DNA from: a virus
Lineage: Duplodnaviria > Caudoviricetes
DNA length: 64,000 bases
IMG/VR virus record: IMGVR_UViG_3300031994_000032
Span: 67,748-131,747 of that record
Direction: 5' to 3' (one strand)
Of this stretch, positions 9,545 through 46,876 are shown piece after piece; the stretch's first letter is position 1, and the number at the start of each line of letters is the position of its first letter. Position numbers and translations under genes: made by a program. Below the pieces are notes generated by a model that was not told the DNA's origin, did no database searches, and saw only the letters and a program-made list of their open reading frames with translations.

Positions 9545-11224
9545 TTATATCAATTGGATTGAATCACTTACTGCGATGTGGAAACGCAAGTATTGCATTT
9601 CAGGATGTTGACCTGCAGCAACTAATGCGAAACGTGATTTCATCGCACCTGCATAAGCGAATGTTGCAGTTGCAGTCGTAGTTACTTTCTTAGCCATGAT
9701 GTATGGTAAGAAAATCAAACCTGGATCTTTTGGTTTAGTTTTACGACCTACAATTACACCAGTGTAATCGATTGGCAAGTTAGGATCTTGATAAACCATG
9801 ATGTTACTTACCTTACCAATAGGATTTGGTGCATCAGCAACTGATTGAACATTGTTAGGCAAGTTCACTTGAGCTAAACCTGCGATTGATTGAACAGCAG
9901 TTACGAATTGAGTAGAACCAATTGCGAAGAATTCACCACCAGTCAAACGAGAATCGTGAGAAATTATATTAGCAGCATAAAGCATTTTTCTCAATAATCT
10001 AGCTTGAAGAGTCAATGAAGTTTCACCACCATTGTCTACAATTACCTTGCTGTAATCAGCATAAGCTTCAGGAACTTCAGTGTCATTAGCTGACATAAAG
10101 TAAGTGTTAAGTACTTCACCTTTAGCTTCAAGAATATCAGTATGTTTCTTAGCCAATTCCCACATTTTAGAAAGAATCAACTTGTTAACTGATTGTGAAA
10201 GTTCATTCAAAGCGTCAGCTTCGATTTGAGCTATAATATCTTGACCATCAGCTTGAGCATCTTCGATTTGTTCCCATGTTGCAGAGAAACCAACTTGGTA
10301 AGTTTTTACCTTGATGTCCATTGAAGTACGTTTAGCACCTAAGAAGTTAACTGTAGTTGCTTCACCTTCTTCACGTTCGAATGGTTCAATACCGAAATTA
10401 CCATCGTAAGGATTCTTACCAGTTTCTTTCGTTACTGAATTTTCGTAGAAATCACGACCAGAGAATGCAGTAATGTGGTTCTCTTTAGTATTTACTAGAT
10501 CAAGTTGCAAATCATCTTTGAATGTTTCATACAAAGTTGGTGCACCGTTGAATCTACGTGCATTGAATTCACCTGGTTTAGCATCAGTACGTTCTACCAA
10601 GAAGATAGGTTTACCAGAAATAAAACCAAGTTCAATGAAAGTCAATTTAAAGTCACCTCTTGTAATTACATTACCTTCAACTTCAGATTCAGAAGTTTCA
10701 TTAACAACTGCTTCCAAAAGTGCTTTACCATTTTCACTAATTGCTGTAGCTTCAACCAATAGAGGGTCAGCAACTGCATTAGTAAATTTTGGAGTACCGT
10801 CAGCTGTACGTAAGTCACCATTGATACGACCGCCTTCATAAACAGTATCATAGAAACGATATTGTCCTTGTGGACCAGCAATAGGAACTACAGCTAACAA
10901 GTCAAGAGCGATTGTTTGAGCAGCTGTTTGCATTGCAATCGCAACAGAAGAAGCAACTGCGTCTGCAGAACCATTTCTTACACCTGAGAAACCATTATCA
11001 CCATCGCTTGGGAATTGAATTGCACCTGCACCTTGCATTGTCATTGAAGGATTAAGTGATGGACCCCAGAATGCTGATTCTAATACTGGTCTAATTTTGT
11101 CTTCGTTGTCTTGGATAGCACAAAGCTTAGACATCCAAGCAACTTTCTGAGAATCTTTAATACCTGTAGATTCTTCAATAAGTTTACCCCATGTTTGGAG
11201 TGCTTTTACGTCATTTATTTCCAT
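9545..11224 (-). CDS. major capsid protein (T4 gp23-like)
   Basis: LAVVPIAGPQG, 'EQIEDAQA.G.D...ALNELSQSVNK', 'GLIFLPY', 'KSRFAL'; strong codon bias; late promoters and terminator. Confidence 0.92.
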   Translation of the reverse strand: MEINDVKALQTWGKLIEESTGIKDSQKVAWMSKLCAIQDNEDKIRPVLESAFWGPSLNPSMTMQGAGAIQFPSDGDNGFSGVRNGSADAVASSVAIAMQTAAQTIALDLLAVVPIAGPQGQYRFYDTVYEGGRINGDLRTADGTPKFTNAVADPLLVEATAISENGKALLEAVVNETSESEVEGNVITRGDFKLTFIELGFISGKPIFLVERTDAKPGEFNARRFNGAPTLYETFKDDLQLDLVNTKENHITAFSGRDFYENSVTKETGKNPYDGNFGIEPFEREEGEATTVNFLGAKRTSMDIKVKTYQVGFSATWEQIEDAQADGQDIIAQIEADALNELSQSVNKLILSKMWELAKKHTDILEAKGEVLNTYFMSANDTEVPEAYADYSKVIVDNGGETSLTLQARLLRKMLYAANIISHDSRLTGGEFFAIGSTQFVTAVQSIAGLAQVNLPNNVQSVADAPNPIGKVSNIMVYQDPNLPIDYTGVIVGRKTKPKDPGLIFLPYIMAKKVTTTATATFAYAGAMKSRFALVAAGQHPEMQYLRFHIAVSDSIQLI

Positions 11225-11321: not shown

Positions 11322-13106
11322 TTAAAATCCGTATTTCATACGTCTCATAATTTCGTTCTTGATATTATCTTGAACGTCATCAGTACGTATGTTTTTGTTG
11401 CTTGACTTCAAAGATTCTTCAATGAATTTTTTAGTGTCAATCGGTTTTTCTCTAAAATCACGAGTCATCCAGAATCTTTCAGCAGTAGCAACATCTTTAA
11501 TCAAGAATAATCTGCTTTCTTTAAGAATTTCTTTCTTTCTTTCATCTGAAAGTTTTTCCCAAGATTCTTTATATCTGTCAGGCATAAAGTTAACTAGATA
11601 TTGTTCAGATTTAATCTTGTTATTTTCTGTTTCTTCAATTTGACGCTGTTCATTAATTTGTTGCTGTGTTTCAGTAACATTTTTAATATTTTGAATAGCT
11701 TCAAATATTTGTTTCATTTCAGCATCTTTTTCAGTCTTGGAAACACCTTCGTTAATTGAACGAACTTGTGATTCCAATTCTTTTATTCTGCTTTCATAAA
11801 CTTCGCAAGTTCTGTCAAGAGCTTCAGTTTGTTTATTCATTGATTCAATGATTGTTTTACTGTAAGCATCCAACTGATCTTTAGTCACGGTATTTTCTGA
11901 AATCATTTTGCTGTAAGCATCGAGTTGGTCTTTAGTTACTGCATTTTCTGAAATCATTTTGCTGTAAGCATCGAGTTGGTCTTTAGTCACAGCATTTTCT
12001 GAAATCATTTTACTGTATGCATCCAACTGATCTTTAGTTACGGCATTTTCTGAAATCATTTTGCTGTAAGCCTCTAATTGACCTTTAGTCACAGCATTTT
12101 CTGAAATCATTTTACTGTAAGCTTCCATTTGTTCTTTAGTAACAAAACCCTCATTATACTTTTTCAAATAACGAGTATAATCGTCAATTTGTCTACGTAA
12201 CAATTCTACTGATCTTGATTCTTCTTCAATGGAAAGCTCAGTTTCTTCTTTAGGTTCACCTTCACAGTCATTAACAAGACAATATCTTACAAAATCTGAT
12301 AGTTTTTCTTTATCATCTGATGAAATTTTCATGACTGCTATTGTTTCATCATCATTAGTATACTCTACTAATTCAGCTTGACAACCAAATTTATCAGCTA
12401 AATCCAAGGCTTTAGCTTTTGCTGTAATTTCTATAGTATTCATATCGTATGAAGTTTCTTTATTTATATTTTTATTATCTGGAATTTCATTTTCATTTAC
12501 TGAATATACTTTTGTATTTTTACTACTTAATGACTCACAAAATACACCTGGTTTTTGTTTTGATGTCATATAATGCAAAGCATTTTTCAATTTAGGATTA
12601 TCATCTCTTGACTCATTTACAGTATGTAAAATTGCTTGTTCAAAACCAGGTTCAGCAACTAAGTCATATGTTATTAACTCTTCAACAATAACATGATTAC
12701 CTTTCATAGAACCAATAGCTCTTGAGGATATATGTAAAGGAACACCATTTTCAACAAGTGTTCTTGCTATACGTCCACTTGGTGTATTCAAAAGACGAAT
12801 TCGTCCTGTAACAGTATCTGTCTTTTCATCATACTTCAAAGATTCAACCATATGAGAAACATTCTTATAAGATACATATCTTACATTATCAGGATGTTCA
12901 AGCTCACCAAGTAATTCTTTTGATTCTATTTTTGGTTGAAGCTTATTCATCTTTTCTATGAAGTTTTTGCTATCATAGATACGATTGTTTTTATTCGTTA
13001 TACCAAACTTAGTAAAAACACCTTCTAGAAAAATCACATCTTGATTTTTATCTATCTTACAAGCATTTTCGCTTAAACTTTCAACTAAATACTTACTTTT
13101 TTCCAT
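11322..13106 (-). CDS. prohead protease (gp21-like) fused to a scaffold/core-like coiled-coil region
   Basis: LEGVF, NKNNRIY, LGELEHP, VSH, LLNTPSG, ISSRAIGS, YDLVAEPGF; long helical C-terminal extension. Confidence 0.9.
   Translation of the reverse strand: MEKSKYLVESLSENACKIDKNQDVIFLEGVFTKFGITNKNNRIYDSKNFIEKMNKLQPKIESKELLGELEHPDNVRYVSYKNVSHMVESLKYDEKTDTVTGRIRLLNTPSGRIARTLVENGVPLHISSRAIGSMKGNHVIVEELITYDLVAEPGFEQAILHTVNESRDDNPKLKNALHYMTSKQKPGVFCESLSSKNTKVYSVNENEIPDNKNINKETSYDMNTIEITAKAKALDLADKFGCQAELVEYTNDDETIAVMKISSDDKEKLSDFVRYCLVNDCEGEPKEETELSIEEESRSVELLRRQIDDYTRYLKKYNEGFVTKEQMEAYSKMISENAVTKGQLEAYSKMISENAVTKDQLDAYSKMISENAVTKDQLDAYSKMISENAVTKDQLDAYSKMISENTVTKDQLDAYSKTIIESMNKQTEALDRTCEVYESRIKELESQVRSINEGVSKTEKDAEMKQIFEAIQNIKNVTETQQQINEQRQIEETENNKIKSEQYLVNFMPDRYKESWEKLSDERKKEILKESRLFLIKDVATAERFWMTRDFREKPIDTKKFIEESLKSSNKNIRTDDVQDNIKNEIMRRMKYGF
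11841..12143 (-). repeat. 6 x 51-nt (17-aa) tandem coding repeat VTKDQLDAYSKMISENA
   Basis: Visible in DNA and protein, with synonymous variation between copies. Confidence 0.95.
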
Positions 13107-16683: not shown

Positions 16684-16706
16684 AACTTTTAAACTTTATT
16701 TTTTAT

Positions 16707-16714
16707 TATTTATA
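16707..16714 (-). promoter_or_regulatory. late promoter TATAAATA
   Basis: Exact box upstream of the tail tube gene. Confidence 0.6.
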
Positions 16715-16724
16715 TTTTTATAAT

Positions 16725-17588
16725 TTATAAAGCTATCCAATATGTATTTGAATGGTCAGCTTTTATTTCTTGTTCTATTGCCTGTATTTCTGATTGTCCT
16801 TCATTTGCTATCGCATCTACATTTATTGTTGTATCACCAATAAGTTTTCCACCAAACATAGAAATAACTCGTCTTAATTGTTTCTTGCATTCAGCTACAA
16901 TATATCTTTTGAAATACGGATCACTAAATAATGCACAGTCTTCAACAGCAGTACAGACATCAAGTACAATATCAGTTCTTGGCAATTCACCTGTAAAGGT
17001 AAGTCTGTTTGTAAGCCTGTTATAATTATAACCTATTGGATGTTGAAAAAGTCTTTGCATTTGATCAAAGAAACTTGATTCTATTACCCAATATTCAAGA
17101 CCTGTTGCAGCAAGAGCAGTTCGGCCATAACTGTAAAAATCACCATTAAAAGCCCACCAGTCATTTTGGTTTCTATACCACCTGCTTCCACCGCTTTCAC
17201 CATTATAATTTCCAAGTTCATAAATTCCACAAACCGAAATTACATTTGTAGGCAATATCAATCGACCTCTTGTAGCTGTACTATCCGTATTTTCATCAAC
17301 TGATTTTTTAAATAGCTGGTTATGCAAGACATTTGCTCGAATTGCGAAATACTGTCTTTCAACAGCATCTTCATATATTCTATAAAATAATTCTTTTGTA
17401 TCTTTAATAACGTGTACTATAGCTCTTTCAGGTATGGTAAACGGTATCATACAAGCTACAGACATTTCTTCTTGAATATCTTTTATAAAGGCATTAAGAC
17501 AAGCTATATTGTCATCTGTGGCATTACAGTTGACAGTACTCATTTTATCTGTGCTCTTATCTTCAAAAAAATCAGTATAGCTTGCCAT
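16725..17588 (-). CDS. neck protein (gp13-like)
   Basis: YNYNRLTNRL, 'YFKRYIVAECKKQL...KLIGDTTIN...EGQSEI'. Confidence 0.8.
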   Translation of the reverse strand: MASYTDFFEDKSTDKMSTVNCNATDDNIACLNAFIKDIQEEMSVACMIPFTIPERAIVHVIKDTKELFYRIYEDAVERQYFAIRANVLHNQLFKKSVDENTDSTATRGRLILPTNVISVCGIYELGNYNGESGGSRWYRNQNDWWAFNGDFYSYGRTALAATGLEYWVIESSFFDQMQRLFQHPIGYNYNRLTNRLTFTGELPRTDIVLDVCTAVEDCALFSDPYFKRYIVAECKKQLRRVISMFGGKLIGDTTINVDAIANEGQSEIQAIEQEIKADHSNTYWIAL

Positions 17589-17600
17589 GTTAACATAATT

Positions 17601-18038
17601 TTAATCATTTTCTTCCGGTAACTGAATTCCCATTAACAAATTCTTATACCCTCTTTCATCTAAAAATACCTCTAAATAATCTTCAGAAGTTTCCAACTGA
17701 ATTATTATTGCATAGTCATTATTATCAAACTGTACATGCAATGTTGGTTTCAGTTTAAATGTATAGTTAGTTGTATCACCAGATTTATTGATAACCATAA
17801 TAACATTATTACTGCTATCAATTTCTGTTTTTATAGTATCCTTTTTATCAAAGTCAAATTCTTTCAAAATTTTCCATTCTCTATTGAACTGTAAAATTTT
17901 ATGAATAATGTATATATTATTATTGTCTTTGACAAAGCAATCCTTAACATCTAAAAGACTAACTTCGGTGTAGTCTTTTATATCTGACATAGCCGCTTCT
18001 ACTATATATTCCTTAAATGTCAAAAACTTATTTTTCAT
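17601..18038 (-). CDS. hypothetical protein with N-terminal CTS-like tag
   Basis: Likely start ATG 18038: MKNKFLTFKEYIVEA. Confidence 0.65.
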   Translation of the reverse strand: MKNKFLTFKEYIVEAAMSDIKDYTEVSLLDVKDCFVKDNNNIYIIHKILQFNREWKILKEFDFDKKDTIKTEIDSSNNVIMVINKSGDTTNYTFKLKPTLHVQFDNNDYAIIIQLETSEDYLEVFLDERGYKNLLMGIQLPEEND

Positions 18039-18045
18039 AATAAAA

Positions 18046-18648
18046 TTATTTTTTAATCTCAACAATCTTTGAATCTGTTAAGCTTATGTATGGATTCTTT
18101 TCATTAATATTTATTTGTGTCAAAATATGCTTCTTTTGAAATAAGCATAAAGGCCAAATCTTTTTAGGCTTTATAGTTTCTTTATGATTGTAATATGTGA
18201 TATATAAATCACTTTTTACATTTATGTCAGATGTTAAAAGAGAATCTTCAAAATCAAGACAAATTTCATACCAAGCATAATCTCCATAACAAGTATCAGT
18301 TAAAGTATTCATATATACCGTATCAGTTTTATTAAACTGATTTTCTATATACTCAACTTTTGTTATTTCTTTTATTTTTATTTTTTCTGTCTTTGAAATA
18401 GATTTTATAGAATCATAAAGTTCTTTCTCATATTTCTTTAATTCAGAAATTGTATAACTGAGACTGATTAAATTATTCTTGTCTGAATCAACTTGTGAAT
18501 ACAAAGCCTTCTGATTACTTATAAGTTCATTAATTTGACGATTCTGATTTATGATTTTACCTATAAAGACAAATAATACACAAATCAGAATTACTACGGC
18601 TATTGATAATATTGCATTAAATTTTTCTCTCATTTTACTGTAATCCAA
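18046..18648 (-). CDS. N-terminal TM + coiled-coil protein, spanin-like lysis accessory
   Basis: Hydrophobic AILSIAVVILICVLFVFIG then coiled coil; overlaps the putative endolysin gene. Confidence 0.55.
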   Translation of the reverse strand: MDYSKMREKFNAILSIAVVILICVLFVFIGKIINQNRQINELISNQKALYSQVDSDKNNLISLSYTISELKKYEKELYDSIKSISKTEKIKIKEITKVEYIENQFNKTDTVYMNTLTDTCYGDYAWYEICLDFEDSLLTSDINVKSDLYITYYNHKETIKPKKIWPLCLFQKKHILTQININEKNPYISLTDSKIVEIKK

Positions 18649-19055
18649 ATTCTTTCATCCTCTTTTACTTTCTTCAATTCAGCTATAAGTTTCTTTTCCC
18701 AATAAGCACTATTGATTAAACCGCCTACAACTTTATTCTCACCCACAAGCGGACATCCATTTGTATCTTTTACTGTATTTCCTCTGTGCATTCTGACACC
18801 AGAAAATGAATTAACATTTATAATCTCAGGTAGTATTCGTTTGAACTTAGATGAATATGACAAAATAACAAGATACCTTCCATTAGGTATAGCAGTCTCG
18901 CCATAAATTTTCTTTTCACCATTATCGAATTTACCATTCTTATTCAAGTCTCTGTCAGGATCTTCAAGAGTTGAACAAAAATAAGAACCATTAATATACA
19001 AATTTCCAATAGTATATTTTTCCTTTCTATATTTTCTGTCAAGTAAAAGTTCCAT
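18630..19055 (-). CDS. DUF5675-family putative endolysin (L,D-transpeptidase-like)
   Basis: YTIG.LYING, TLED, KIYGETAIP.GRY, FSGVRMHRGN...GCPLVG. Confidence 0.8.
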   Translation of the reverse strand: MELLLDRKYRKEKYTIGNLYINGSYFCSTLEDPDRDLNKNGKFDNGEKKIYGETAIPNGRYLVILSYSSKFKRILPEIINVNSFSGVRMHRGNTVKDTNGCPLVGENKVVGGLINSAYWEKKLIAELKKVKEDERIWITVK

Positions 19056-19056
19056 T

Positions 19057-21489
19057 CTATACTAATATTTTAATTACATTTTCTGTTAAAAGATAACCTC
19101 TTGGACTTGTAAAATCTTTAATTTTATAATCTGACTGTACTGTCACAAGAGCTATTGTACAATCAACAAAATTAGTATTTGATACTGCTTTATACTCTTC
19201 AAGATCTTTATCAACTTTACTAGTACGCATCATGTCCGCCCATTCACCATCACCAACTAAAATGTTAATCATTACAATAGGTGAATTCGCAGAGCTTGAA
19301 TTTACTTTTTTATCTTTCAATTCAAGTATGTCATTTGTAGATTGTCTTACACATGGTCCTAATAATTCAGTATTCAAAATCATTGATGCTATACCTGCTT
19401 TCTCAAGAGATGCATTAGTTTTAAACTCTGGAATATCTTCAAGTTTTAATGGATATACTTTATTTGTACCGCCAAATGCATAACTTCTGTACGTCTTAAT
19501 ATTTAATACTTGTAATATAGGCATTAATGCTCCAATTATTGCCATATACTGATCTTGATTACCAAAAATAGATCCTGAAAAGTCAACATAAATATTCGCT
19601 GTACAAGTTGCAAGTGTATTCTGTGAAGAATACTTCCTTGACGGTAAAATATACTTATCAGCATTATAAATTAAAGACTTTCTTGGAAAAATAACTTTTG
19701 TCTTATACAATGACTGCCGTCTGTTAACAGTTTGGTAAGTTATTATTTTCTTTAATCTATTCTGTATTCTTTCAGTTGATACTTTACTCTTTAGTGATAC
19801 TGAATTTGCAAAGTTTGTATCTTGAGGTTCTTCTCTATTATCAAGCTCATTCAAATCATCAATATCGACATTAAGAACTTCAGATTTAGACAATAATTCT
19901 TTTAAACTGTCAGGTATATCTTTTCCGACAGCCTTTAAAATATCATCCTCAGATTCGATTGTTACTTTATTGAATATTGAATCAGTCATTTCAGGATCTT
20001 CATCTTCACCTGCTTCACCAATGCCTCCACTACCACCTGAACCATCTAATTCGCCATCATTAGATTCTTCATCTTTATCGCCTTCACCATTCTCAGAAGA
20101 TTCTCCACTTCCAGTTTCAGATGATTCTTCACCTTCATTACCTTCACCTGAACCTGAACCTGTTGAATTTCCTTCAGATGATTCTTCACCTTCTTCAGAA
20201 TCTTTCCCACTTGACCCACCTGAACTACCACCTTCACCATCCTCAGAAGATTCTTCTCCTTCAGAACTTTCTGTATCTCCTTCTCCTGATTCTACATCAC
20301 CTGATTCACCATCTTTTTCACTCTCACCAGATTCTCCATCTTTACTCTTATCAGATTCTCCATCTTTACCGTCTTTACCAGATTTCCCATCTTTACTATC
20401 TTCTTCACCTCCACTAAAATCCTTGTCATCTAGTTCTGTACTAGGATCTGTTCCTGGCATGCCATCTCCATCTTCATCTCCCTCGGAACCAGAGCTTTCT
20501 TTACCATCTTTTGATTTAGATTTAGATTTTTTACCGCCTTCTTCTCCTTCTTCTTCTCCTTCTTCTTCTCCTCCTTCTTCACCTTCTTCTCCTTTATCTT
20601 TATCTTCAGGTTCGGCTGAATCATCATCTGAATCGCCTGAATCACCGCCATCATCACCATCGTCAGATTCTTCATCGTCATTCCAATCATCAATAGATTT
20701 TAATACATCTTTTATGGCACTTACTTCTTTATCAGCTTTAACATCATCTTCTTCAGATTCATTTATAAACTGATAAAATGTCAATAAAGATTCTTCAACA
20801 GCTCCTGCTCCGTATATTCTTTTAATTTCATCTGTTAAAAGTTTTTTAGCTTTTTTCTTACGTTCTTCAAGTGTTATGGATTTATCCTTTTTAATAGCTT
20901 CTATCATCTTCTGATACCTTTTGACAATCTTCTCATACTCCATTCTCATAATACGGTCTTGAAATTCAGATTTTGCAATTGCTTCAAAGGGTTTAGAAGA
21001 ATATTTTTCTAAGTCTACATAACCATGCAGGTTATCTCGAAGATTTTTCTCAGATGTATATTTTGAATTAACTATTGCATTATTAACTTCATAATCAGCT
21101 GCAATATTAAATATTCTATGCGTTTTTTGATTCTTGTTTATATTAAGGACTTTATACATTGGATCTTCACGTTTTATGTGAGCAAATAAAACATGAAGCA
21201 TTTCATGAAATAACACTATTGCAACATTTGAATCTTTTTTTAATTCTCTTATTGTAAATGCAGGATTCATATATACAGCTTTACGCTCTCCTACACACAT
21301 TGTAGGTATCTCATAAGTAAATATGAACTTAAATCCTGAAATAAGTCGAGTGAATTTATCAAGCTTATACTGTAATATATTTAAAGCAGCTTCAACAAGT
21401 GAAGCTGCCTTTTCAATTTCTTCTTTTCTACTAGGTATTCTTTCTACAAGAAACTCTACATTAGAATTATCCTTTGTAAGTGTTATCAT
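19057..21489 (-). CDS. DUF2201-like metallopeptidase + acidic linker + vWA domain
   Basis: HEMLH, NIAADYEVN, long D/E/G/S tract, MIDAS-like YVDFSGS and VGDGE. Confidence 0.85.
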   Translation of the reverse strand: MITLTKDNSNVEFLVERIPSRKEEIEKAASLVEAALNILQYKLDKFTRLISGFKFIFTYEIPTMCVGERKAVYMNPAFTIRELKKDSNVAIVLFHEMLHVLFAHIKREDPMYKVLNINKNQKTHRIFNIAADYEVNNAIVNSKYTSEKNLRDNLHGYVDLEKYSSKPFEAIAKSEFQDRIMRMEYEKIVKRYQKMIEAIKKDKSITLEERKKKAKKLLTDEIKRIYGAGAVEESLLTFYQFINESEEDDVKADKEVSAIKDVLKSIDDWNDDEESDDGDDGGDSGDSDDDSAEPEDKDKGEEGEEGGEEEGEEEGEEGGKKSKSKSKDGKESSGSEGDEDGDGMPGTDPSTELDDKDFSGGEEDSKDGKSGKDGKDGESDKSKDGESGESEKDGESGDVESGEGDTESSEGEESSEDGEGGSSGGSSGKDSEEGEESSEGNSTGSGSGEGNEGEESSETGSGESSENGEGDKDEESNDGELDGSGGSGGIGEAGEDEDPEMTDSIFNKVTIESEDDILKAVGKDIPDSLKELLSKSEVLNVDIDDLNELDNREEPQDTNFANSVSLKSKVSTERIQNRLKKIITYQTVNRRQSLYKTKVIFPRKSLIYNADKYILPSRKYSSQNTLATCTANIYVDFSGSIFGNQDQYMAIIGALMPILQVLNIKTYRSYAFGGTNKVYPLKLEDIPEFKTNASLEKAGIASMILNTELLGPCVRQSTNDILELKDKKVNSSSANSPIVMINILVGDGEWADMMRTSKVDKDLEEYKAVSNTNFVDCTIALVTVQSDYKIKDFTSPRGYLLTENVIKILV

Positions 21490-21509
21490 GGTTGTAACTA
21501 TCTATAATA

Positions 21510-24083
21510 TTATTCAATATCTTCAAAACGTTTAAACAAAACATTTTTCATTGCAGGAACGTAAGGACATTTTGATATTGACTCTTTACTATTAACATCA
21601 TAACCAAAATAATTCAATATACTGAATACTCCTGAAACTACTGAACCACCAGGTTCATTTTCTGGTAAATTAGAAACCAAGAATCTACACATATTTTCAA
21701 ATTCCTTAGCAGGCATTTGTTTTTCTTTAGTATATCTTGATTTAATATTATTTTGAAGAATTTCAAGTATTTGAGGAGTTGAAGGTAATTTAAGACCATC
21801 AATTTTCTCATTTAATTCACCTGAAAATACATTCACTGCATTAAATATTTGCTTAGAATTTGAAACACCTGCATTTGCTTTATAGTAATCTATAAAATCT
21901 TGTGCCATTTCTGAACCTACTGCACCGGCAAGCTTTCTTAATAATGTTGCTTCAGGAATTTCAACATAACTTGAATAACCTTTTTGTTTACAGTAATCAT
22001 TCAAGTGAATAATTGCATTAGACCAAGAACGAGGTGATGGGAATGCAGCCTCAGCTCTTTTATCCAAAAATGCAGTTCTTGCTTCTTTATCAAAGTTGAA
22101 CCAGTTCGTATACTCGCCATCAGCATTTGTTTCTGCTGACAAGAAATTTAATGTTGTTTCATCAAATCCATGTTTTCTAGCCCAAGTTGTCCATTCAGCA
22201 AATGAAGGAATAAACTGTATTTGACAACGGAAGCGGTTCATCAAAGCACCTGGAGCATTTGACCATTTTTCTTCAACAGCTGCATCGTCCAAAGGTCTAT
22301 TAGTACAAGCCATCAAAGACCATTTACTACCTAATACTGAAGAACCAAATCTTCTTTCACTTAACAATGTCAAAAGTTTATTGAAAATATCAGGATCAGC
22401 TCTAAACAACTCATCAAGCATTATCAAACCACCATCACCTGTATGTTCAAAGTGATTCAAAGTACCGTCTTCGTTGTAAATAGGCATTGTTGAACCATTT
22501 GCGATGTCGTCAAGGATTTTATCAACTTTTGGATCACCTGTTGGTTCATATACTGGAAGAGCTCCGTTTTTAAGTGCATCTGCACATTTACGGATTTTAA
22601 TATCAAGATATTTTCTATCAATATCTTTTGTATCAATACCTGCAGTATTCATATACTCTTCAACAGTTCTTGTATCAGGAAGAGGTATTGATAATGAATC
22701 AGAAGCCAATTGAGAGCAGTCAACAATCATCAATGCCTTCATTTTCTTCGTATCACCCTTTGCTGTTTTATTATATTCTTCAACAACTGATCTAGGTATT
22801 GAAGATTTACCAATACCAGGTGCACCCCAGACAAGAATAGGCTTAGCTGATTCTTTACCAGGATTTCTGAGTTGCCAATCAACTTCGTCAATTAATACAT
22901 CAGTTCCACCTTCTTGATATTTTTCACGAAAACCACCTGATGCAGCAGAATAACCTCCAACTCCTCTTGCTTCTGTTAATGCAAGCATTGCAGCAAGGTT
23001 TGTCTTTTCATTATCTGAAGCATAAGTTTCAAATACACCTGACTTATTAACTTTAATTCCAGAAGAACCTGCGATAGGATCATTTGTATCTGCTTGTACG
23101 GCTCCACCTTTACCAAAATTTTTAGCTATTGTAACAGGAGATACGGCACCGTAAGAATTACCTTCACTATCAAATATTGCAAATACGTTATTAGTTATAA
23201 ACATTGCAGTCTTTTTGAAAAACTCCAATATTTTTTTACCAATATTTTTTAATGTATCAACAACACCTTCATTTATAGGTTCATGATGACGTGATCTGTT
23301 TCTGTAATATTCTCTATTTGATTCCATTCTTGAACTTTTATTTTGGCTTTCTTTCAAGAACTGCGAAAATGGCTTCAATTGAAGACTGTCATCAAAATTA
23401 ATATCCATATCTTTTAATGATTGCTCAATATCTTGTTTATAAACATCTTGCATATCAATTTTAGGCATTAATGTTTTATTTGCATATATTGCCTTATTGT
23501 ATACCCATTCTTTAATTATCTGCTCTTGTTTGAATGAAGAATACTTAAACATATTCTTAAATGACTTACAAGCGCTTACATCCCAGTTTTTAATAGAATC
23601 ATTATTAAAATCTGCTTTATAAAAACAACCATTCATACTAGTTGCTTTTGACGTATTAATACCGCTCAAATCAGCATTAGGAATTGTTAAATATGCAAAC
23701 ATTGCATCAAAAATAGTGACATCAGAAAAATCAAGCAGTTCCGTGAATACTTTAAATTTAGATGTTCTATTTTTAAATTTCTTCACAGCTTGATCATAGA
23801 GTACATCAACGTAAATGATAGCCTTATCATTTGTCATTTTTATCTTCTGATGAGATTTTATGGCAGACACGATTTCAGTAGAAACTTCATTTTTCTCCTG
23901 TTTAGCTTTTTCTTGTTTCACATCATCGTCTATACCGTCATCGTCATCATCGTCTAAATCAGAAAATGCAGATTCATTCATTCCATATCTTGAAATGAAT
24001 TCATCATGTAAAGCTTTTCTATACGCTTCACCACTATATCTTTCTATTTTTTCGTCAAATAAAATCGAGAAATCCATAATCAT
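21510..24083 (-). CDS. MoxR-like AAA+ ATPase with N-terminal DUF285/BspA-like repeats
   Basis: WGAPGIGKS, MLDELFR, ACTNR, ALMNRF, PSPRSW; N-terminal 'NWDVS...KNMF'. Confidence 0.88.
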   Translation of the reverse strand: MIMDFSILFDEKIERYSGEAYRKALHDEFISRYGMNESAFSDLDDDDDDGIDDDVKQEKAKQEKNEVSTEIVSAIKSHQKIKMTNDKAIIYVDVLYDQAVKKFKNRTSKFKVFTELLDFSDVTIFDAMFAYLTIPNADLSGINTSKATSMNGCFYKADFNNDSIKNWDVSACKSFKNMFKYSSFKQEQIIKEWVYNKAIYANKTLMPKIDMQDVYKQDIEQSLKDMDINFDDSLQLKPFSQFLKESQNKSSRMESNREYYRNRSRHHEPINEGVVDTLKNIGKKILEFFKKTAMFITNNVFAIFDSEGNSYGAVSPVTIAKNFGKGGAVQADTNDPIAGSSGIKVNKSGVFETYASDNEKTNLAAMLALTEARGVGGYSAASGGFREKYQEGGTDVLIDEVDWQLRNPGKESAKPILVWGAPGIGKSSIPRSVVEEYNKTAKGDTKKMKALMIVDCSQLASDSLSIPLPDTRTVEEYMNTAGIDTKDIDRKYLDIKIRKCADALKNGALPVYEPTGDPKVDKILDDIANGSTMPIYNEDGTLNHFEHTGDGGLIMLDELFRADPDIFNKLLTLLSERRFGSSVLGSKWSLMACTNRPLDDAAVEEKWSNAPGALMNRFRCQIQFIPSFAEWTTWARKHGFDETTLNFLSAETNADGEYTNWFNFDKEARTAFLDKRAEAAFPSPRSWSNAIIHLNDYCKQKGYSSYVEIPEATLLRKLAGAVGSEMAQDFIDYYKANAGVSNSKQIFNAVNVFSGELNEKIDGLKLPSTPQILEILQNNIKSRYTKEKQMPAKEFENMCRFLVSNLPENEPGGSVVSGVFSILNYFGYDVNSKESISKCPYVPAMKNVLFKRFEDIE

Positions 24084-26056
24084 TATACATTAAATTTGAA
24101 ATAATCAATCATTTGTTCTTCAGCTAAATCTTCTGCACTCTTTACAGTATGTGCAAACATCTGAGCGTTCAATGTGTTTTTCCACATGAAATCCTTGTCA
24201 GGATATTTTCTCATACTTGTACCAACGGCGTCAAGCATACTATAATTAACTTTACAAGTATATACAGTATCACCTGACTTGTCTCTTGTCATCTTATTTT
24301 CATTAAGAGCTTTTTCAACATAAGTACAGACTTCTTTCCATCTCCCTCTTGGAACTACTGTTTGTTCATCAGGAACAGATGTATCATCCATTTGAGCTTG
24401 ATAAGTATCTTTTATCTTTTTCCATAAAACTTTTGGAGCTGGATATAGATTTATAAAGTTAGCTCTTCTTCGAATAGAGTCCCATTGCTTATCACCGGAT
24501 GCTGCTTTAACTTCATCTTCCAAGTTATTTTGAGAACTATTGGTAATGATAATTACAAGACCGTGGAATGCCAATTTATCCGGTAATCTTTCAACAATAT
24601 TATCGGCAATCTTCTCTCTTTGGACATTCATTTGTTTTTTCAAATCATCAATACCCTTTGCCATATTTTCAGCATCAAGCAATCTACCAGCATCTTGGTA
24701 TTCTTTTAGTTTCTTTTCGTAATCAGACATTTTCTTTTTCAATGCCTGCCATCTGGAATTAACTTTCAATTCATCATCTATATTACCAACTTCTCGATAA
24801 TAATTTAGACGTCTGTTACTTGATGTATGATATGATCTTACACCTGTTGGAGCATCAACTGTAGAATCAGAAGTATCCATCATGTGCTGCCAGAATGCAA
24901 CTTTATTTGCTGAGTTGAATATGTTAGACATATCATCCATTATAATCAACTTATCAGGATATTGTGCAACCATCTTATACAAGTTTGCAACAGTAAGACC
25001 TTTTGTACCAAGCTTTACATAGTCGGTACCTTCACGCATACCTTTCTCAACAAGAATTTTCTGCATGGTCCAAGTTTTACCGATACCAGCATCACCGGAA
25101 ATAATCATCAATCTCTTGAATTGCTTTCTTGTTACATCGTCCATAGTACCTTTTACGTACTCACACATTTGTTCAGTAATCAATGCAATTGTTTCAAGAG
25201 ATTCATCATATTTTTTAATCTGATTTTCATAAGCTTCTTTAAACTTATCTTCCATTTTAATTGGTGCTATATCAACAGATACATCTTCAGTAACTGTCAA
25301 GCCTTCAGTAGTTGAAAGAGCCATTGCTGCAGGAGCTGTAGTTCCAGGCACTGGATTAGAAGCACCACCTGACGGAACTAATGCCGTATTCTGCATCATT
25401 TTTGACAAATCATACCACATTGCATCAGCAGGTTTTTTATTAGTGCTGTACAATTTTGCAAGGTTCGGATCTGTTCTGATAATCTGTGTACAAAATGCCT
25501 GAAGATTAGGTTCTTTCTTAGCTCTATCCAATATATCAGGAGCAATTTGTAATAATGTTGTCATTCTTGGAGACATCTTAGCTTCAGATATTGTTCTTGA
25601 TTCATTAACCATTACATTTTCTATAGCATCAAAAAATGCCGTCAAACCAAGCTTGTTAGTTTCAAATTTATAGTCAGCGACATTCTTACCAAATGATGTT
25701 ATACTTTTCTTAAATATATAAGCCCTAAAGTTTTGATTATTGTAGTCAAAGAATATAATTTTATCTTTTGACTCTATAACGGCATACTTTATTCCGTCAA
25801 CCAAAATAAATCTAGGAAATACAACAATACCTTTAATTTTATTAAATATTATTGATACTGCCTTAGATACAATTTTATTTGATGAAACAAGATCTTTCGT
25901 TATAAGATTACTATTGATCATAGCTTTAAATTCTTTAACGTCACTTGGATCACCTGATTGAACTTCAGTACTTATATCATCTAATACCTCTGTGCCTGCT
26001 TCATTAGACTCATTAACTAATTTAGCTTCATTTAAAAATTGCTTAAAAATACTCAT
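24083..26056 (-). CDS. P-loop/AAA-type ATPase
   Basis: ISGDAGIGKT, IIMDD, IIITN, SIRRR. Confidence 0.8.
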   Translation of the reverse strand: MSIFKQFLNEAKLVNESNEAGTEVLDDISTEVQSGDPSDVKEFKAMINSNLITKDLVSSNKIVSKAVSIIFNKIKGIVVFPRFILVDGIKYAVIESKDKIIFFDYNNQNFRAYIFKKSITSFGKNVADYKFETNKLGLTAFFDAIENVMVNESRTISEAKMSPRMTTLLQIAPDILDRAKKEPNLQAFCTQIIRTDPNLAKLYSTNKKPADAMWYDLSKMMQNTALVPSGGASNPVPGTTAPAAMALSTTEGLTVTEDVSVDIAPIKMEDKFKEAYENQIKKYDESLETIALITEQMCEYVKGTMDDVTRKQFKRLMIISGDAGIGKTWTMQKILVEKGMREGTDYVKLGTKGLTVANLYKMVAQYPDKLIIMDDMSNIFNSANKVAFWQHMMDTSDSTVDAPTGVRSYHTSSNRRLNYYREVGNIDDELKVNSRWQALKKKMSDYEKKLKEYQDAGRLLDAENMAKGIDDLKKQMNVQREKIADNIVERLPDKLAFHGLVIIITNSSQNNLEDEVKAASGDKQWDSIRRRANFINLYPAPKVLWKKIKDTYQAQMDDTSVPDEQTVVPRGRWKEVCTYVEKALNENKMTRDKSGDTVYTCKVNYSMLDAVGTSMRKYPDKDFMWKNTLNAQMFAHTVKSAEDLAEEQMIDYFKFNV

Positions 26057-26085
26057 GACTTTCGTTTTATATAAATTATTTATGA

Positions 26086-26586
26086 TTAAATAAATTTAGG
26101 CTTAAAATTACTATTCATTTCACAACCTAAATCAAACATATCGTAAGATTTAACATTTCTTACATTCCATTTTGAAATATCTTGATTGAAAGAATTAGCA
26201 TTTTCAAACATACTTTCCATACTAACAACCTTACTGACATCCCAATTAGATATGTCACAATTGAATTTCCGACATCCATAAAACATATTATTCATATTAG
26301 TGACATTACCGGTATTCCACTTAGAAATGTCACCATTGAACTTATATGGATTTTTTAATGGATTTTTAAACAAAACATTAAATACATTAGACATATCATC
26401 AATTTCAGATGTATCAATGTCATTAAAATCTCCTTCATTTCCTCTTTCATCAATAAGTTTATCAAGAAGATATGATAATTCGATATTATTTTTTGGATGA
26501 TACATTCCATCAGAACCAAGCTGTAAATACTCAGGTTCCTTTCTTGCCTCATTTATGACTTGTCTGAATGTCCTTAAATTTTCCAT
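26086..26586 (-). CDS. DUF285/BspA-like repeat protein with CTS-like tag
   Basis: FNGDISKWNTGNVTNMNNMF-type repeats x3; N-terminal MENLRTFRQVINE. Confidence 0.9.
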   Translation of the reverse strand: MENLRTFRQVINEARKEPEYLQLGSDGMYHPKNNIELSYLLDKLIDERGNEGDFNDIDTSEIDDMSNVFNVLFKNPLKNPYKFNGDISKWNTGNVTNMNNMFYGCRKFNCDISNWDVSKVVSMESMFENANSFNQDISKWNVRNVKSYDMFDLGCEMNSNFKPKFI

Positions 26587-26587
26587 A

Positions 26588-27703
26588 TTATTTCTTACCT
26601 CCTATATATGCGCCAAGAGCTGTCAGGAATGCACGTGACGTAAGCATATCTTTAAACACACCTTTTTGTACACCAAGAGCATTTGCAATACATTCTCCAA
26701 GTTTTGGACCGATTGTAAAACCAAGTACACCACCTGCAACTGCTCCAAGAACACCTTCTTGAATAAGTATTGATTCATTCACATATACAGTATCTTTAAA
26801 CTCAATCTGCATTTTCATCACAGATCCGTCAAAGTTAATTTCTATTTGTGAAATGTCATATCTTTCAGAAAGTTTCTGTCTTACTGCATCTTCAACTGAT
26901 TGAGGATCAAACTGACTATTAAATCTATATTCGAGATTTAAAGTATAATCATAATCTGACAAAAATCCTGGTTCACCAGCAACATCTGCTACACCTAAAG
27001 TTTGAATAGCGTCTACAATATCTTTATGAATCAATTTAGGAATCACTGACTTATGTTCTGTCATGATTAAAGAACTGTCATAATACACAGTAACTTCAAC
27101 TTGGCTAAATGTATCATCATACAAGAAAATTACTTTAGAAATTCTTGAATCTTTACTTGTTAAATCCTCTAATTCTTGTTTAAGCGTTTTAATATCGTCT
27201 ATATTAGTAAGTACTGCAGATATATATTCGCTATAGTCAATGTCAATATCTTCAAACTCTACATCGCTTACTTTTTCACAATGTTTTTGGAATATTTGAA
27301 GGACTCTTGCTCTTGTCTCATTAGAAAGCGTATTTAGGTTTTCAGCTATTGTACGTTTCTTTCTTTTTCTTCTATTGTTAAATAATGCATCAGCTGATCC
27401 ATTTCTTTTTCCAGAAAAACCATTATCACCTCCTTCAGGAAATTGTATAGGACCTGCACAACCTCCACCGTTACAATTGGTTTCAGCACCTTCACTTTGA
27501 ACTTCTGATTTTACATCACCGTTTGAATCAAAGTATTTATCATATAGTGTGCTATAATTTTTAATTATTTCAAGATATTCATCTTTTGTAATTGGTACTT
27601 CTTGAAAATATACTTTTGTAACATTATCAAAGTCAAGCATATTAAATGCACCGTCTCTTTGAGCTGTAACATACGTTAAAAATTTCTGTCTTTCGTTTTC
27701 CAT
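26588..27703 (-). CDS. multi-domain putative virion protein (capsid-like peptide, C-terminal glycine zipper)
   Basis: 24-aa match to the capsid protein; C-terminal GVLGAVAGGVLG...; CATAAATA upstream. Confidence 0.7.
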   Translation of the reverse strand: MENERQKFLTYVTAQRDGAFNMLDFDNVTKVYFQEVPITKDEYLEIIKNYSTLYDKYFDSNGDVKSEVQSEGAETNCNGGGCAGPIQFPEGGDNGFSGKRNGSADALFNNRRKRKKRTIAENLNTLSNETRARVLQIFQKHCEKVSDVEFEDIDIDYSEYISAVLTNIDDIKTLKQELEDLTSKDSRISKVIFLYDDTFSQVEVTVYYDSSLIMTEHKSVIPKLIHKDIVDAIQTLGVADVAGEPGFLSDYDYTLNLEYRFNSQFDPQSVEDAVRQKLSERYDISQIEINFDGSVMKMQIEFKDTVYVNESILIQEGVLGAVAGGVLGFTIGPKLGECIANALGVQKGVFKDMLTSRAFLTALGAYIGGKK

Positions 27704-27758: not shown

Positions 27759-28967
27759 CTATTTTGAAATATACATTTTACCCGATGTCGTTTTTACAAC
27801 ACGTAAATTAGTGAGTTCTACATTTTGTTTACTCTTCTCTTGTTCTTTATGCATCTTATCCATTTCTATTGCTGAAAGGCTTAATGCCTCTTGTACAGAC
27901 TTATTATAATAATTTACATGATACTTAAATGTATACTGTTCTAATACAGGATGTTTTTGATAAATATCAGCACCGATAACAACAATTTCATTTATTTGGT
28001 ATTCATACTGATATTTTGCATAAAGCCTTTGTTTTTCATCTATCAAAGTGTAATCTTTACCAAGGCTTTCCATCACATCTTTCTTACAGCCTTCAAAACT
28101 TTCATTACACTTATTAAATCCATTCCGTAATTCATTAAGCTTGTCAGTTAAAGGCATTTTAAAATCTCCAAAACTTATAACTTCAGATAGATTAAGTGCC
28201 TTAATACGTTTTGGAATATCTTTAAATTCATTTATTCGTAAAGACTCTACTTTTCTTTGCAACTCTTTTAATAACTTGTCTATTTCAAGAATTTTTGAAC
28301 CTATCCGTATTAAGGCAATTGCTATCATTGCAAGTTTATTCAAAACATTGTCAACAGCAGAACCTATTACAACAGGAGTAGAACTTTGTGTAGTTGTATT
28401 TATAATTTCAACAATTAAGTCTTTAATTTCTTTATCAAGTCTTTCTATTAAGTCATCTATCTCATCACAAAGAACGTTTATGTAATTTGACCGAGACCCT
28501 GATGGACCTTTTATAACGTCAAACTTATAATCTGCTTTGACATTTTCGATAAACATATTAAAAACACCCTTATCGATATTAAATCGTTCTTTTATTTCAT
28601 TTATCTGTGAATTGAAATCGTCTTTGACAACTACAAGCTTATTTTGTATTCTTTCAATAGTACGTCCAGCAGCAACCATTTCAGCTCCAATATTTGAAAG
28701 ACTAAGACGATCTTTACAAGACATGTCTTTATTAATTTCTTTACGATTTTTATACTTCTCTTTCTCAGTTTCCATGAGGGACTGCAATTCCTGAAGTCTT
28801 CTTGTCCTTACATCAACCTCTTCTTTCATTTTTTCAGTAAGTTCGGCAATGGCTACTGCTGGACTTTCAGGTAATACAATATGGGTATTCTCAACAGCAT
28901 CTAATATATCAAGACACTGATTACCAATACATATAATATTCCTTACTGTTTTATTAAGAATTGCCAT
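27759..28967 (-). CDS. hypothetical coiled-coil protein
   Basis: 402 aa, helical, directly downstream of the portal. Confidence 0.7.
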   Translation of the reverse strand: MAILNKTVRNIICIGNQCLDILDAVENTHIVLPESPAVAIAELTEKMKEEVDVRTRRLQELQSLMETEKEKYKNRKEINKDMSCKDRLSLSNIGAEMVAAGRTIERIQNKLVVVKDDFNSQINEIKERFNIDKGVFNMFIENVKADYKFDVIKGPSGSRSNYINVLCDEIDDLIERLDKEIKDLIVEIINTTTQSSTPVVIGSAVDNVLNKLAMIAIALIRIGSKILEIDKLLKELQRKVESLRINEFKDIPKRIKALNLSEVISFGDFKMPLTDKLNELRNGFNKCNESFEGCKKDVMESLGKDYTLIDEKQRLYAKYQYEYQINEIVVIGADIYQKHPVLEQYTFKYHVNYYNKSVQEALSLSAIEMDKMHKEQEKSKQNVELTNLRVVKTTSGKMYISK

Positions 28968-28989: not shown

Positions 28990-30627
28990 TTATGCTTCTG
29001 GTTGAGGTTCTTCTTGTGGAGGTTCTTCTTGTGGAGGTTCTGGCATTGCCGGTTCTCCTCCACTTTCACCACCTTCCATACCTTGTTCACCACCACCTTG
29101 TTCTTGTTGAGCAGCAGCTTCAGCTTCTTTTGCGGCTGCAGCAGCTTTTTCTTTGGCTTTCTTTTTCATTTCTTCATTAAGTTTAAGGTCATTGTCAGAC
29201 AATGTACTAAACTTACGAATCATAAATTCCATATCAAGATAACTTGTTTGATTACCTTCAGCATCAGTAACCTGTAAAGACTGCATTACAGATGATATGG
29301 CTTCTGCGTTTTTACGCAATAAATCTATCATCTTTTCTTGAAGGTATGTTGAATCTGATTGATATATAAGACTTAATGATGAAAAGAATTTTAAGTCATC
29401 TTTTATATCATCATCAAGACACATTTGAATATATATCGGTTTTATAAACAACATTTGGAATATATTTCTCAAACGTGCTATAAACTTGCTGAATCTGATT
29501 TCATCCCTAAAAACACCTTCAGTATTATACGACTGCTGTGGCTGAGACAGTCTATTAAATCTTGCTAAAGGTATTTTTGTTATTTGTTGAAATTTTTCGG
29601 CAAAATACTTAATGGCATCCATATTTGACAAATCAGGCCCTCCAGAATTATTAAGTACTTGAATCTCTGGTTTTTGACCATCTTGCTGAGCAAAGAATAT
29701 TTGTTTATAAAATGGAAGCATTGGTTTTCCATTCGTTTTAATTTGTCCATTAGCCCAGTTAAAATCAACTTGTTCTGCATGGTCTGCTGCAACTTGTGCC
29801 AATCTTTGTCTACCTTTCTGATATGATGTTGAACCAACAGGAACTGTATACATCATCTTAAATGATGCATTTGTAACAGCAAATGTTATACGAGTTGATT
29901 CCATAATTCTTAAAATATTGAAAGAACGAATCAATCTCGAAACATAGCTCACATTGTCATCTTCATCAGAATATGTTATAAAGATTATTTCTTGCTCACA
30001 CAGATCTTGATGAATAGGACGAAGCGTATTTATATCATATGTCTCAACAGAATATCTTTTTTCATGTGTTTCTCTGTCAAATGTAACTTGTACCTTGGCT
30101 GCATCAAGTTCTATAAATCCTTCAATAGTTTTTCCGTTTTTAGAATAAACTATCTGATACGCAATTTTACCATCTATGATGAATTTTCTAAAAAGCTTCC
30201 AAACTGCATCAGTGTTCATAAGTCCAAAATACAGTCTGAACTTTTCAAAATATTCCGTAAGTTTTTCTGATCTTTCTGATGTCAAATCAGTAATTGATGA
30301 TTTTATATATGCAAATGATTCATCCTGTACAGTAGAACAAATTGATTCATCACAGATAATATCAAGAATTTCATCAATATCATCTTCTTTAGCATAGCTT
30401 CGACAGGTATCACGTAATGTATTAAAATCAGCTGGTTGCTGGTTATCAAAATTAAAACCTGTTTTTGTCATAGAAGATATTGATAGAAGCTTATCAACAT
30501 CCTGCATATTGACAATATTAGTAGTCAAGTCATTTGAAAACTTAACTTTAGATAATTTCTTTCTTAAATAATCACTTGTCCTGCTACTTGATGACAAGTT
30601 AAATTCTTTATTTACAAAACCAGCCAC
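28990..30627 (-). CDS. portal protein (gp20-like)
   Basis: IDEILDIICDE, FIIDGK, LRIMESTR, IKYF...KIP..RF, RDEIRFSKFIARLR; GTG start; TATAAATA at 30672-30679. Confidence 0.93.
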   Translation of the reverse strand: MAGFVNKEFNLSSSSRTSDYLRKKLSKVKFSNDLTTNIVNMQDVDKLLSISSMTKTGFNFDNQQPADFNTLRDTCRSYAKEDDIDEILDIICDESICSTVQDESFAYIKSSITDLTSERSEKLTEYFEKFRLYFGLMNTDAVWKLFRKFIIDGKIAYQIVYSKNGKTIEGFIELDAAKVQVTFDRETHEKRYSVETYDINTLRPIHQDLCEQEIIFITYSDEDDNVSYVSRLIRSFNILRIMESTRITFAVTNASFKMMYTVPVGSTSYQKGRQRLAQVAADHAEQVDFNWANGQIKTNGKPMLPFYKQIFFAQQDGQKPEIQVLNNSGGPDLSNMDAIKYFAEKFQQITKIPLARFNRLSQPQQSYNTEGVFRDEIRFSKFIARLRNIFQMLFIKPIYIQMCLDDDIKDDLKFFSSLSLIYQSDSTYLQEKMIDLLRKNAEAISSVMQSLQVTDAEGNQTSYLDMEFMIRKFSTLSDNDLKLNEEMKKKAKEKAAAAAKEAEAAAQQEQGGGEQGMEGGESGGEPAMPEPPQEEPPQEEPQPEA

Positions 30628-46366: not shown

Positions 46367-46876
46367 TTATGCCACTTCTTTTAGCAAGAACTGTGCTTTC
46401 TGAAGGCATTCGTCATAATCCGTATTTTTGTCATAAACGCTTGACCAGTAATCCTGAAGTGCCTTTGCAAGTTCGTCAACATCTTTTGATGTAACAATTT
46501 CTATGATGTCGGCCGCAAGATCAACTGCATCAGCCTTGTTTCTTACATATCTGTTGTTATAAAGGAAATTTTCTATCTTTTCATCAAATTTAAAACCTTC
46601 ATTCACTTTATTTTTAGATTCATAAGTAAAAGCTGAAGATTTTTTAATAAAATCAACCTCTACAACTTTATCAGGACCCTTTGAATAAGTACCATTCCGA
46701 CCAAAAAGAATTTTTTCAGCCTCTTCCTGATTTTTTGCAGTACAGCTATCAGTAAAGTCGCTTTCAATATTTCCATATTTATTGAGTACATAGAAATGAC
46801 CTGTATAGGTTTCTTTACCTTGGTCATCTTCAATATCCTCATTAACAAAGGCTTTAAATGTCTTTAGGTTTTCCAT
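46367..46876 (-). CDS. putative internal head protein (CTS-like tag)
   Basis: MENLKTFKAFVNE; internal VNE site. Confidence 0.65.
   Translation of the reverse strand: MENLKTFKAFVNEDIEDDQGKETYTGHFYVLNKYGNIESDFTDSCTAKNQEEAEKILFGRNGTYSKGPDKVVEVDFIKKSSAFTYESKNKVNEGFKFDEKIENFLYNNRYVRNKADAVDLAADIIEIVTSKDVDELAKALQDYWSSVYDKNTDYDECLQKAQFLLKEVA

Follow-up and report, generated by a model that had tools for sequence, protein, structure and literature searches.

A conserved copy of the capsid protein arm within a putative head protein of a huge phage

A 371-residue protein of a huge phage, here called ORF-X, holds within it an old copy of 24 residues from the N-terminal arm of the major capsid protein (MCP) of the same phage, to which it is otherwise unrelated. 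The window that we analysed is a stretch of 64,000 nucleotides from a virus of the Caudoviricetes (positions 67,748 to 131,747 of the IMG/VR record IMGVR_UViG_3300031994_000032, a contig of 131,747 bp with 31% G+C and a completeness rating of 43%). In it, the genes of ORF-X (26588..27703) and of the 559-residue MCP (9545..11224) both lie on the minus strand, as settled by translation. The copy has been kept by selection on its amino acids, it is conserved in the orthologues of ORF-X, comparable copies recur in other phages including T4, and most of them resemble the arm of their own phage's MCP more than the arms of other phages. On the best reading of these sequences, ORF-X would work in head assembly or inside the head of this huge phage, whose capsid is of the T4 type.

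The copied peptide and its conservation

Translated from the minus strand, the peptide of ORF-X (residues 83-106, 27386..27457) reads AGPIQFPEGGDNGFSGKRNGSADA and the original segment in the arm of the MCP (residues 66-89, 10958..11029) reads AGAIQFPSDGDNGFSGVRNGSADA, with 20/24 residues identical. An initial annotation, made from the letters of the window, had described a capsid peptide inside an unrelated protein, and comparison of the whole proteins bears this out: BLASTP aligns a single segment of ORF-X with the MCP (20/25 identities, E 2e-9), and the similarity ends sharply on both flanks. The copy had also been proposed to be old, which the codons confirm. Ten of the 20 identical residues are encoded by different codons, 53 of 72 nucleotides are identical with a longest identical run of 14 bases, and the Nei-Gojobori method gives, over the 24 codons, proportions of synonymous and nonsynonymous differences of 0.67 (pS) and 0.13 (pN). 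These values, the differing codons and the short identical run argue for an old copy kept by amino-acid selection rather than for a recent conversion. A six-frame search of the contig, rated 43% complete, found exactly two copies, those of ORF-X and the MCP; the rest of the genome may hold more. We call proteins of this kind carriers of a capsid-arm copy, an operational class (a segment significantly similar to the cognate MCP arm beyond the cleavage point, within a protein that shares nothing else with the MCP) rather than a curated family; ORF-X belongs to it on the pairwise match above, the lack of any other MCP similarity and a match to the arm profile A3, described below, at E 2.2e-10 in its own genome.

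The peptide is also conserved where little else of the protein is. Three homologues of ORF-X were found in a large protein collection, one 94% identical (P0005) and two about 26% identical (P0006 and P0007), and all of them share with ORF-X the pattern AGPIQ[FM]P.GGDNGFSG[VK]RNGS[AG]D; none of these orthologues has lost the peptide that the initial annotation singled out. P0006 corresponds to the homologue encoded on another IMG/VR contig, G001, whose MCP is 80% identical to that of the window. The G001 protein is 25.7% identical to ORF-X, holds AGPIQMPSGGDNGFSGVRNGSGDA and occupies the same gene slot, directly after a homologue of the 402-aa gene that precedes ORF-X in the window. Because the peptide is kept in this homologue, whose modules are reshuffled, it has outlasted near-total change elsewhere in ORF-X.

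Such persistence bears on the possibility that the peptide has no function and is left over from gene conversion or recombination that joined parts of the MCP gene to other genes. Homing endonucleases lie near MCP genes (in PTm1, and segD in T4) and could spread gene fragments. We nevertheless find this explanation hardly credible: synonymous change has come close to saturation with the protein sequence conserved, an orthologue only 26% identical still has the peptide, and the carriers described below have intact frames and a common grammar of an upstream x-E site, the copy and a basic run.

The source of the copy is a capsid protein of the T4 gp23 family. The 559-aa protein matches PF07068 over residues 95-537 (E 6.8e-15; 55.8 bits, where 24.4 would suffice) and the major head protein family phrog_138 (E 6.7e-15). 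Its nearest GenBank relatives, all less than 33% identical, belong to uncultured huge phages of 460-735 kb and the Tenacibaculum phages PTm1 and pT24; further relatives below the same level belong to Sphingomonas phage PAU, Chryseobacterium phages and Lak megaphages. In an alignment of 13 MCPs of this clade, the N-terminus consists of a propeptide up to [ILMV]-x-E, then N, S or D, followed by ..N.NGMG.v..P, a variable stretch, GSGD and a conserved LPLAMQVAAQTIGLDL. The [ILMV]-x-E motif is present in all 13, a protease gene is adjacent, and V47-L48-E49 of the window MCP (11078..11086) aligns with it. The initial annotation had named VLE as the likely maturation site; the alignment with a near-invariant motif upholds the position, and the cut itself is likely from the sequence. 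The copied peptide begins 16 residues past VLE and spans the variable stretch to GSAD-A, a segment that is conserved in close relatives of the MCP (P0008, P0009 and P0010) and variable further out.

Capsid-arm copies in other phages

The initial annotation had suggested a search of the full proteome for more copies. Searches of other phages revealed further carriers. We searched 10 GenBank phage genomes and 10 large IMG/VR contigs with the arm profile A3 (16 rows, including three of the copies; threshold E<=0.01) and found extra copies outside the MCP in 9/20, namely 6/10 GenBank genomes and 3/10 IMG/VR contigs. The GenBank genomes are PTm1 (E 2.5e-8), LR756502, LR745206 and LR756501 (two copies each), together with pT24 (E 9e-4, weak) and Lak-B5 (E 0.007); the contigs are G003, G009 and G011, and the G003 copy is identical to that of LR756500. 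In the latter phage, whose MCP is 32.6% identical to that of the window, a query with its own arm revealed a second copy within an ORF of 127 aa (E 1.6e-7). In the T4 genome, a query with residues 56-105 of gp23 matched gene 61.1, which encodes a 54-aa hypothetical protein (NC_000866 18966-19130, minus strand; L043 1467-1631) between gene 61.2 and the primase gene. Gp61.1 shares 17/37 residues with gp23 residues 57-93 (E 8e-10) and is laid out as a leader, MKTFKEFIKE (MKTYQEFIAE in IPII/IPIII), a gp23-arm copy and a lysine-rich tail. Its place among replication genes is odd for a head protein.

The carriers share elements around the copy as well. A polybasic run (>=5 K/R in 8 residues, <=45 residues downstream of the copy) follows it in 14 of 18 carriers, the others being P0006, P0007, PTm1 ORF-299 and a 74-aa frame of LR756501. 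ORF-X has 7 K/R in a stretch of 8 residues that starts 5 residues after the copy, and the RRKRKKR that the initial annotation had seen there (residues 111-117, 27353..27373) is separated from the copy by 4 residues. A strict upstream pattern, hydrophobic-or-Ala-x-E followed by a small or polar residue, is present in 13/18 carriers; in ORF-X and P0005 its sole match is F-P-E, inside the copy itself. Most small carriers have N-termini like T4-type targeting leaders, for example MKHLKNYKSFNE|D, MRYLKPYKKFIE|N and ..FEEFANE|D. In G009 (L137 1468-2283, plus strand), a 272-aa protein starts with the arm copy and KKKKKR, continues in frame into MKHLKTLESFISE, a leader-like site, and in its later part has a stretch resembling the N-terminal 'A' domain of ORF-X (..RDSGKTNMF..); a DUF5049 match here stays below threshold (E 0.14).

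For most small carriers the similarity to the MCP includes the [LIF]-x-E site itself, which would suit an assembly regulator or decoy: the copy and the N-terminus of the MCP would compete for scaffold or prohead protease, with the effect of timing cleavage or tuning head size rather than loading cargo. The T4 literature places the head-length mutations A66D, A94V and G97S in the N-terminal region of gp23, in keeping with this idea, and it describes the 10-residue leader of T4 as sufficient alone for targeting. A copy in a leader-bearing protein would then need another role, and the idea is attractive for the small carriers. It fits ORF-X poorly: there the similarity begins 16 residues past the MCP site and excludes it, and the large extra modules of the protein would be needless in a simple competitor. 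Overall we judge a regulator distinctly unlikely.

Copies also tend to follow the MCP of their own phage. When 15 copies were scored against 16 MCP arms, the cognate MCP was best for 11 (in a smaller set, for 9 of 12 among 13 MCPs), and for two more, the window ORF-X and a 166-aa protein of LR745206, it came second behind that of a sister phage. ORF-X scores 104 with its cognate MCP, 108 with the MCP of its sister G001 and a median of 25 with the others; it matches its own MCP at the level of the lineage only. Among the residues common to a copy and its cognate arm are stretches peculiar to a lineage (ATIGTNWSS and G[IV]GDPVPAG, for example), drawn from an otherwise variable part of the arm. 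The initial annotation had proposed to look for co-variation between the two copies, and the outcome is divided: as whole segments, arm copies track the MCP of their own phage, and co-variation at a single residue (SADA or SGDA) fails under strict comparison, since the MCP of G001 has SADA where the ORF-X homologue of that contig has SGDA.

Architecture and surroundings of ORF-X

ORF-X is a modular protein. An N-terminal 'A' domain (residues 5-59, 27527..27691) is followed by the arm copy, the polybasic run, a middle domain and a glycine-rich hydrophobic C-terminal tail, whose Gly-zipper-like module (residues 315-371, 26591..26761) is recognised by profile matches. The 'A' domain is in all homologues, doubled in P0006 and P0007, and 51% identical to its second copy in the G001 protein; the order of modules differs among homologues. 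It belongs to no Pfam family, and a relation to DUF5049, sub-threshold at E 0.14 (12.6 bits, where 28.7 would be required), is not claimed. Just beyond the polybasic run, I-A-E (residues 119-121, 27341..27349) is a candidate prohead-protease site by its form, which is like the end of the T4 IPII/IPIII leader (I-A-E) and of the F-I-N-E|A leaders encoded elsewhere in the window genome.

Family searches gave little more. Pfam returned nothing above cut-off for ORF-X, with one sub-threshold BET match (E 0.0012, 19.4 bits against 24.5), PHROG returned 0 families, and a Pfam scan of 8 carriers returned no family for any of them; a ParB-like domain guessed from the sequence of PTm1 ORF-299 was likewise not supported by Pfam. 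A protein atlas gave no feature match >=0.9, and structural TM-scores were below 0.5. AlphaFold2 without an alignment gave a mean pLDDT of 43.9, too poor for a fold search. Prediction of a complex between two copies of MCP residues 91-559 and ORF-X residues 72-121 scored 0.00, in a run without controls that counts neither way. A word-based search with ORF-X residues 72-115 retrieved P0005 alone from 4 candidates and is uninformative on the other carriers, and the one useful match that tblastn of ORF-X gave among GenBank phages is in LR756500 and covers the tail module (E 8e-4).

That tail links ORF-X to a larger family. The module of about 57 residues is nearly invariant in the four ORF-X homologues and has the form ..EG.LG...GG..G..IGP.IG....A.A.G...G..YD.LTSR......G..IG.., which ORF-X shows. 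A profile search with ORF-X retrieved 262 proteins at E<=0.001, nearly all through this module; among the 150 listed, most are 80-244 aa long and share the tail only, with or without the 'A' domain. Members of this tail family (P0019-P0166) have an acidic middle and often a T4-type N-terminal leader; a strict leader pattern is found in 36/148, against 5.2 +/- 2.1 in shuffled sequences. Glycine-zipper Pfam families gave weak sub-threshold matches in 2 of 10 members scanned. These proteins may be membrane-active ejected peptides, and the family looks like leader-addressed head cargo to which ORF-X would belong through its tail. ORF-X thus sits, by its tail module, in a family that appears to be leader-addressed, and has the arm copy instead of a leader. 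In LR756500.1 (L002 2761-3144, plus strand) a small protein, about 125 aa long, has no parts other than a leader-like N-terminus (..FKTFNSFVNE|N), an acidic linker and this tail module; the protein encoded next to it, of 284 aa, also ends in a basic, hydrophobic stretch.

The gene lies among structural genes. On the minus strand the order runs from the large terminase and, further downstream, the portal gene (28990..30627, phrog_213 E 2.2e-52, two genes upstream of ORF-X) to a 402-aa protein for which no family was found (27759..28967, 32.6% identical to the product of the gene just upstream of the G001 homologue), ORF-X and, just downstream, a DUF285 protein (26086-26586, PF03382 E 1.3e-29) with the targeting-type leader MENLRTFRQVINE. 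Three large proteins follow, then an adaptor, the tail tube, the tail sheath, a 122-aa protein, a 594-aa prohead maturation protease (11322..13106, phrog_207 E 1.1e-36) directly upstream of the MCP gene, and the MCP itself. The protease is probably fused to a scaffold, and the homologous gene of PTm1 bears the annotation 'prohead core scaffolding protein and protease'. In PTm1 the carrier ORF-299 (277 aa) is encoded between the portal gene and that gene, in the slot that in T4 is taken by the prohead-core genes 67 and 68.

Two further observations concern this region. The DUF285 repeat family occurs again within the gene of an 857-aa ATPase (21510-24083). In G001 (locus L001) the tail tube gene directly follows the ORF-X homologue, and a block of about 10 kb in the window between ORF-X and the tube gene (16683-26586), which holds the DUF285 protein, a 657-aa protein, the AAA ATPase, an 810-aa protein, three small ORFs and the adaptor, has no match there; either an insertion in the window phage or a loss in G001 would account for it.

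Targeting-type leaders are frequent in the window genome. Of 13 proteins matching the N-terminal pattern, 11 carry the leader MENLKTF..FINE|A, exact or slightly varied, in strong likeness to MKTYQEFIAE of T4 IPII/IPIII, and 2 are not leader-like. Pattern-bearing genes lie at 17601-18038, 26086-26586, 46367-46876 and 47878-48921, with eight more upstream of the window on the same contig. The sequences suggest a large set of leader-addressed head cargo.

Surroundings of this kind also bear on whether the peptide is instead, as the initial annotation had offered as an alternative, a modification or recognition site common to both proteins. Its reader would be a third party outside the head: an enzyme that modifies both, a chaperone acting on both, or an immune sensor of the host that detects the capsid N-terminus and for which the copy would be a decoy. 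The motif is rich in Gly, Ser and Asp and is coil in the low-confidence AlphaFold2 model. A RimK-like (ATP-grasp) protein of 773 aa is encoded 2.5 kb from the MCP gene (4754-7075, plus strand, phrog_2599 E 5.5e-10), although linking it to modification of head proteins is pure speculation, and the position of T4 gene 61.1 among replication rather than head genes could be taken the same way. We consider a third party quite improbable: no result ties an enzyme or sensor to the motif, the head-gene context and targeting-type leaders of the carriers point to the head, and the copied part of the arm is variable, which is unusual for the site of a conserved enzyme.

A possible docking tag for the phage head

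T4 offers the closest guide to where the arm acts. At the place matching V-L-E, T4 gp23 has L63-T64-E65, and is cut after E65, which fits the numbering of gp23* from residue 66. Residues 66-91 of gp23 have been named the "N-fist". Residues 66-105 are described as lacking order and lying within the prohead before it expands, probably in touch with the scaffolding core, and as externalised on expansion; the N-fist then lies on the outer surface, contacts four subunits, stabilises the shell and helps to form the Soc site, with a different geometry around special vertices. By position, the copied peptide may be the equivalent of the N-fist: like it, the MCP segment lies between a cleavage-type site and the conserved AAQTI..DL helix region.

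A model based on these data is that the peptide of ORF-X is a portable tag that would bind what the MCP arm binds, be it scaffold core or lattice, and thereby carry ORF-X into the prohead, a proposal that we regard as evenly poised. The peptide would act as a short docking motif for the same partner as the arm itself, most likely the scaffolding and protease core inside the prohead, otherwise an arm socket in the shell, and docking would bring ORF-X into the assembling head. Of the two, the core seems no less likely a docking partner than the lattice, because the T4 region is inside the unexpanded prohead and probably at the scaffolding core. The prohead protease might then cut ORF-X at the I-A-E after RRKRKKR into two pieces. 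The N-terminal one, with the 'A' domain, the copy and RRKRKKR, could bind DNA or an acidic core; the C-terminal one, with the middle domain and the Gly-zipper tail, is a possible membrane-active ejection protein.

Alternatively, and as the initial annotation had first proposed, the copy might dock in the lattice of the mature head, filling a socket of the N-fist type, with ORF-X as a cement or decoration protein or with the basic run tethering DNA to the shell. We think this unlikely. The N-fist ends on the outer surface in T4, and the leader-bearing carriers with a polybasic run look internal; moreover, no vacant sockets are known. On the other side stand the contacts of the N-fist with four subunits and its stabilising of the expanded shell, the variable geometry near special vertices, the matching to the cognate MCP, which fits a socket co-evolving within the same protein, and the polybasic run found past the copy in most carriers.

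Several observations weigh against the docking-tag model, or limit how far it reaches. The N-terminus of ORF-X, MENERQKFLTYVTAQRDG, does not form a canonical capsid targeting sequence (CTS) leader of about 10-13 residues, and ORF-X is not among the 13 proteins with the leader pattern; nor is there an [LIVM]-x-E just before the copy, the nearest form being a G-A-E 9 residues upstream. Because the T4 leader suffices alone, an arm copy in the small leader-bearing proteins probably has a role beyond targeting. Arm copies are not universal: at the A3 threshold no extra copy was found in 11 of the 20 genomes (PAU, MA9V-1, LR756504, MaF61, G002, G004, G005, G006, G007, G008 and G010), and among 80 more IMG/VR MCP loci, covered to 10 kb on either side, 0/80 have a second copy at E<=1e-3. 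At E<=50, cognate matches in these loci were no better than non-cognate ones. The cognate MCP ranks only 5 and 8 of 16 for the copies of pT24 and G009, and the counts of carriers and of cognate matches are not independent trials, because the phages are related and A3 included three of the copies. Finally, hhalign of the T4 gp23 N-terminus with the MCP alignment was not significant (probability 1.15%), so that the equivalence to the N-fist is positional only.

Among known systems, the CTS of T4 IPII and IPIII, an N-terminal leader of about 10 residues that is removed at I/L-x-E, is likewise a short portable peptide on unrelated proteins and tied to the prohead protease system. In contrast, the ORF-X peptide is internal, would stay on the protein after any cut upstream of it and copies the capsid protein itself. 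T4 gp61.1 is closer, with its cleavage-type site, its copy of the cognate arm beyond the cleavage point and its lysine-rich tail. It differs in being a free-standing mini-protein with a CTS, whereas ORF-X has 371 residues, extra modules and no CTS. The two proteins have no sequence homology, each copying its own capsid protein, and the gp61.1 families phrog_1823 and phrog_2086, which gp61.1 itself matches at E 3.1e-33, were not matched by ORF-X or by the 9 other carriers scanned. A second parallel is the cargo-loading peptide of encapsulins, which is usually C-terminal, is not a copy of the shell protein and binds inside an HK97-fold shell. As in encapsulin or scaffold-mediated cargo loading, a short linear peptide may decide the encapsulation of ORF-X; its peptide is by contrast internal and a copy of the shell protein.

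In the literature searched (including PMC9958956, PMC10052503, PMC9546572, PMC7136217, PMC9026906 and PMC3468402), subscription papers and supplements lying outside the search, we found no description of a capsid-arm copy in another protein, and gp61.1 appears in gene tables only. What is new here is a copy within a larger, module-shuffled protein with a membrane-type tail, and the spread of such copies to huge phages of 0.2-0.7 Mb with gp23-type capsids. The putative address is distinctive in that it reproduces the arm of the shell protein itself and tracks the sequence of that protein.

A wider hypothesis, which we hold tentatively and with more doubt than belief, is that capsid-arm copies form a general class of head-assembly elements, not described before, that reaches from gene 61.1 of T4 to megaphages of 0.5-0.7 Mb, each co-evolving with its MCP and replacing the arm on the core or the lattice so as to load cargo, tether DNA by its basic run or set the timing of assembly or the size of the head. 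Since gene 61.1 shares the grammar of the other carriers, the idea is directly testable in T4. If true, these copies would be the phage counterpart of encapsulin cargo-loading peptides, and ORF-X the first example built into a large, module-shuffled protein of the ejection type; loading of cargo into T4-type capsids is a possible use. The choice of non-scaffold proteins for the heads of large phages is called "mysterious" in a T4 review. An arm-copy tag would provide a second addressing principle beside the T4 leader, and internal and ejected proteins would become predictable from sequence in uncultivated huge phages.

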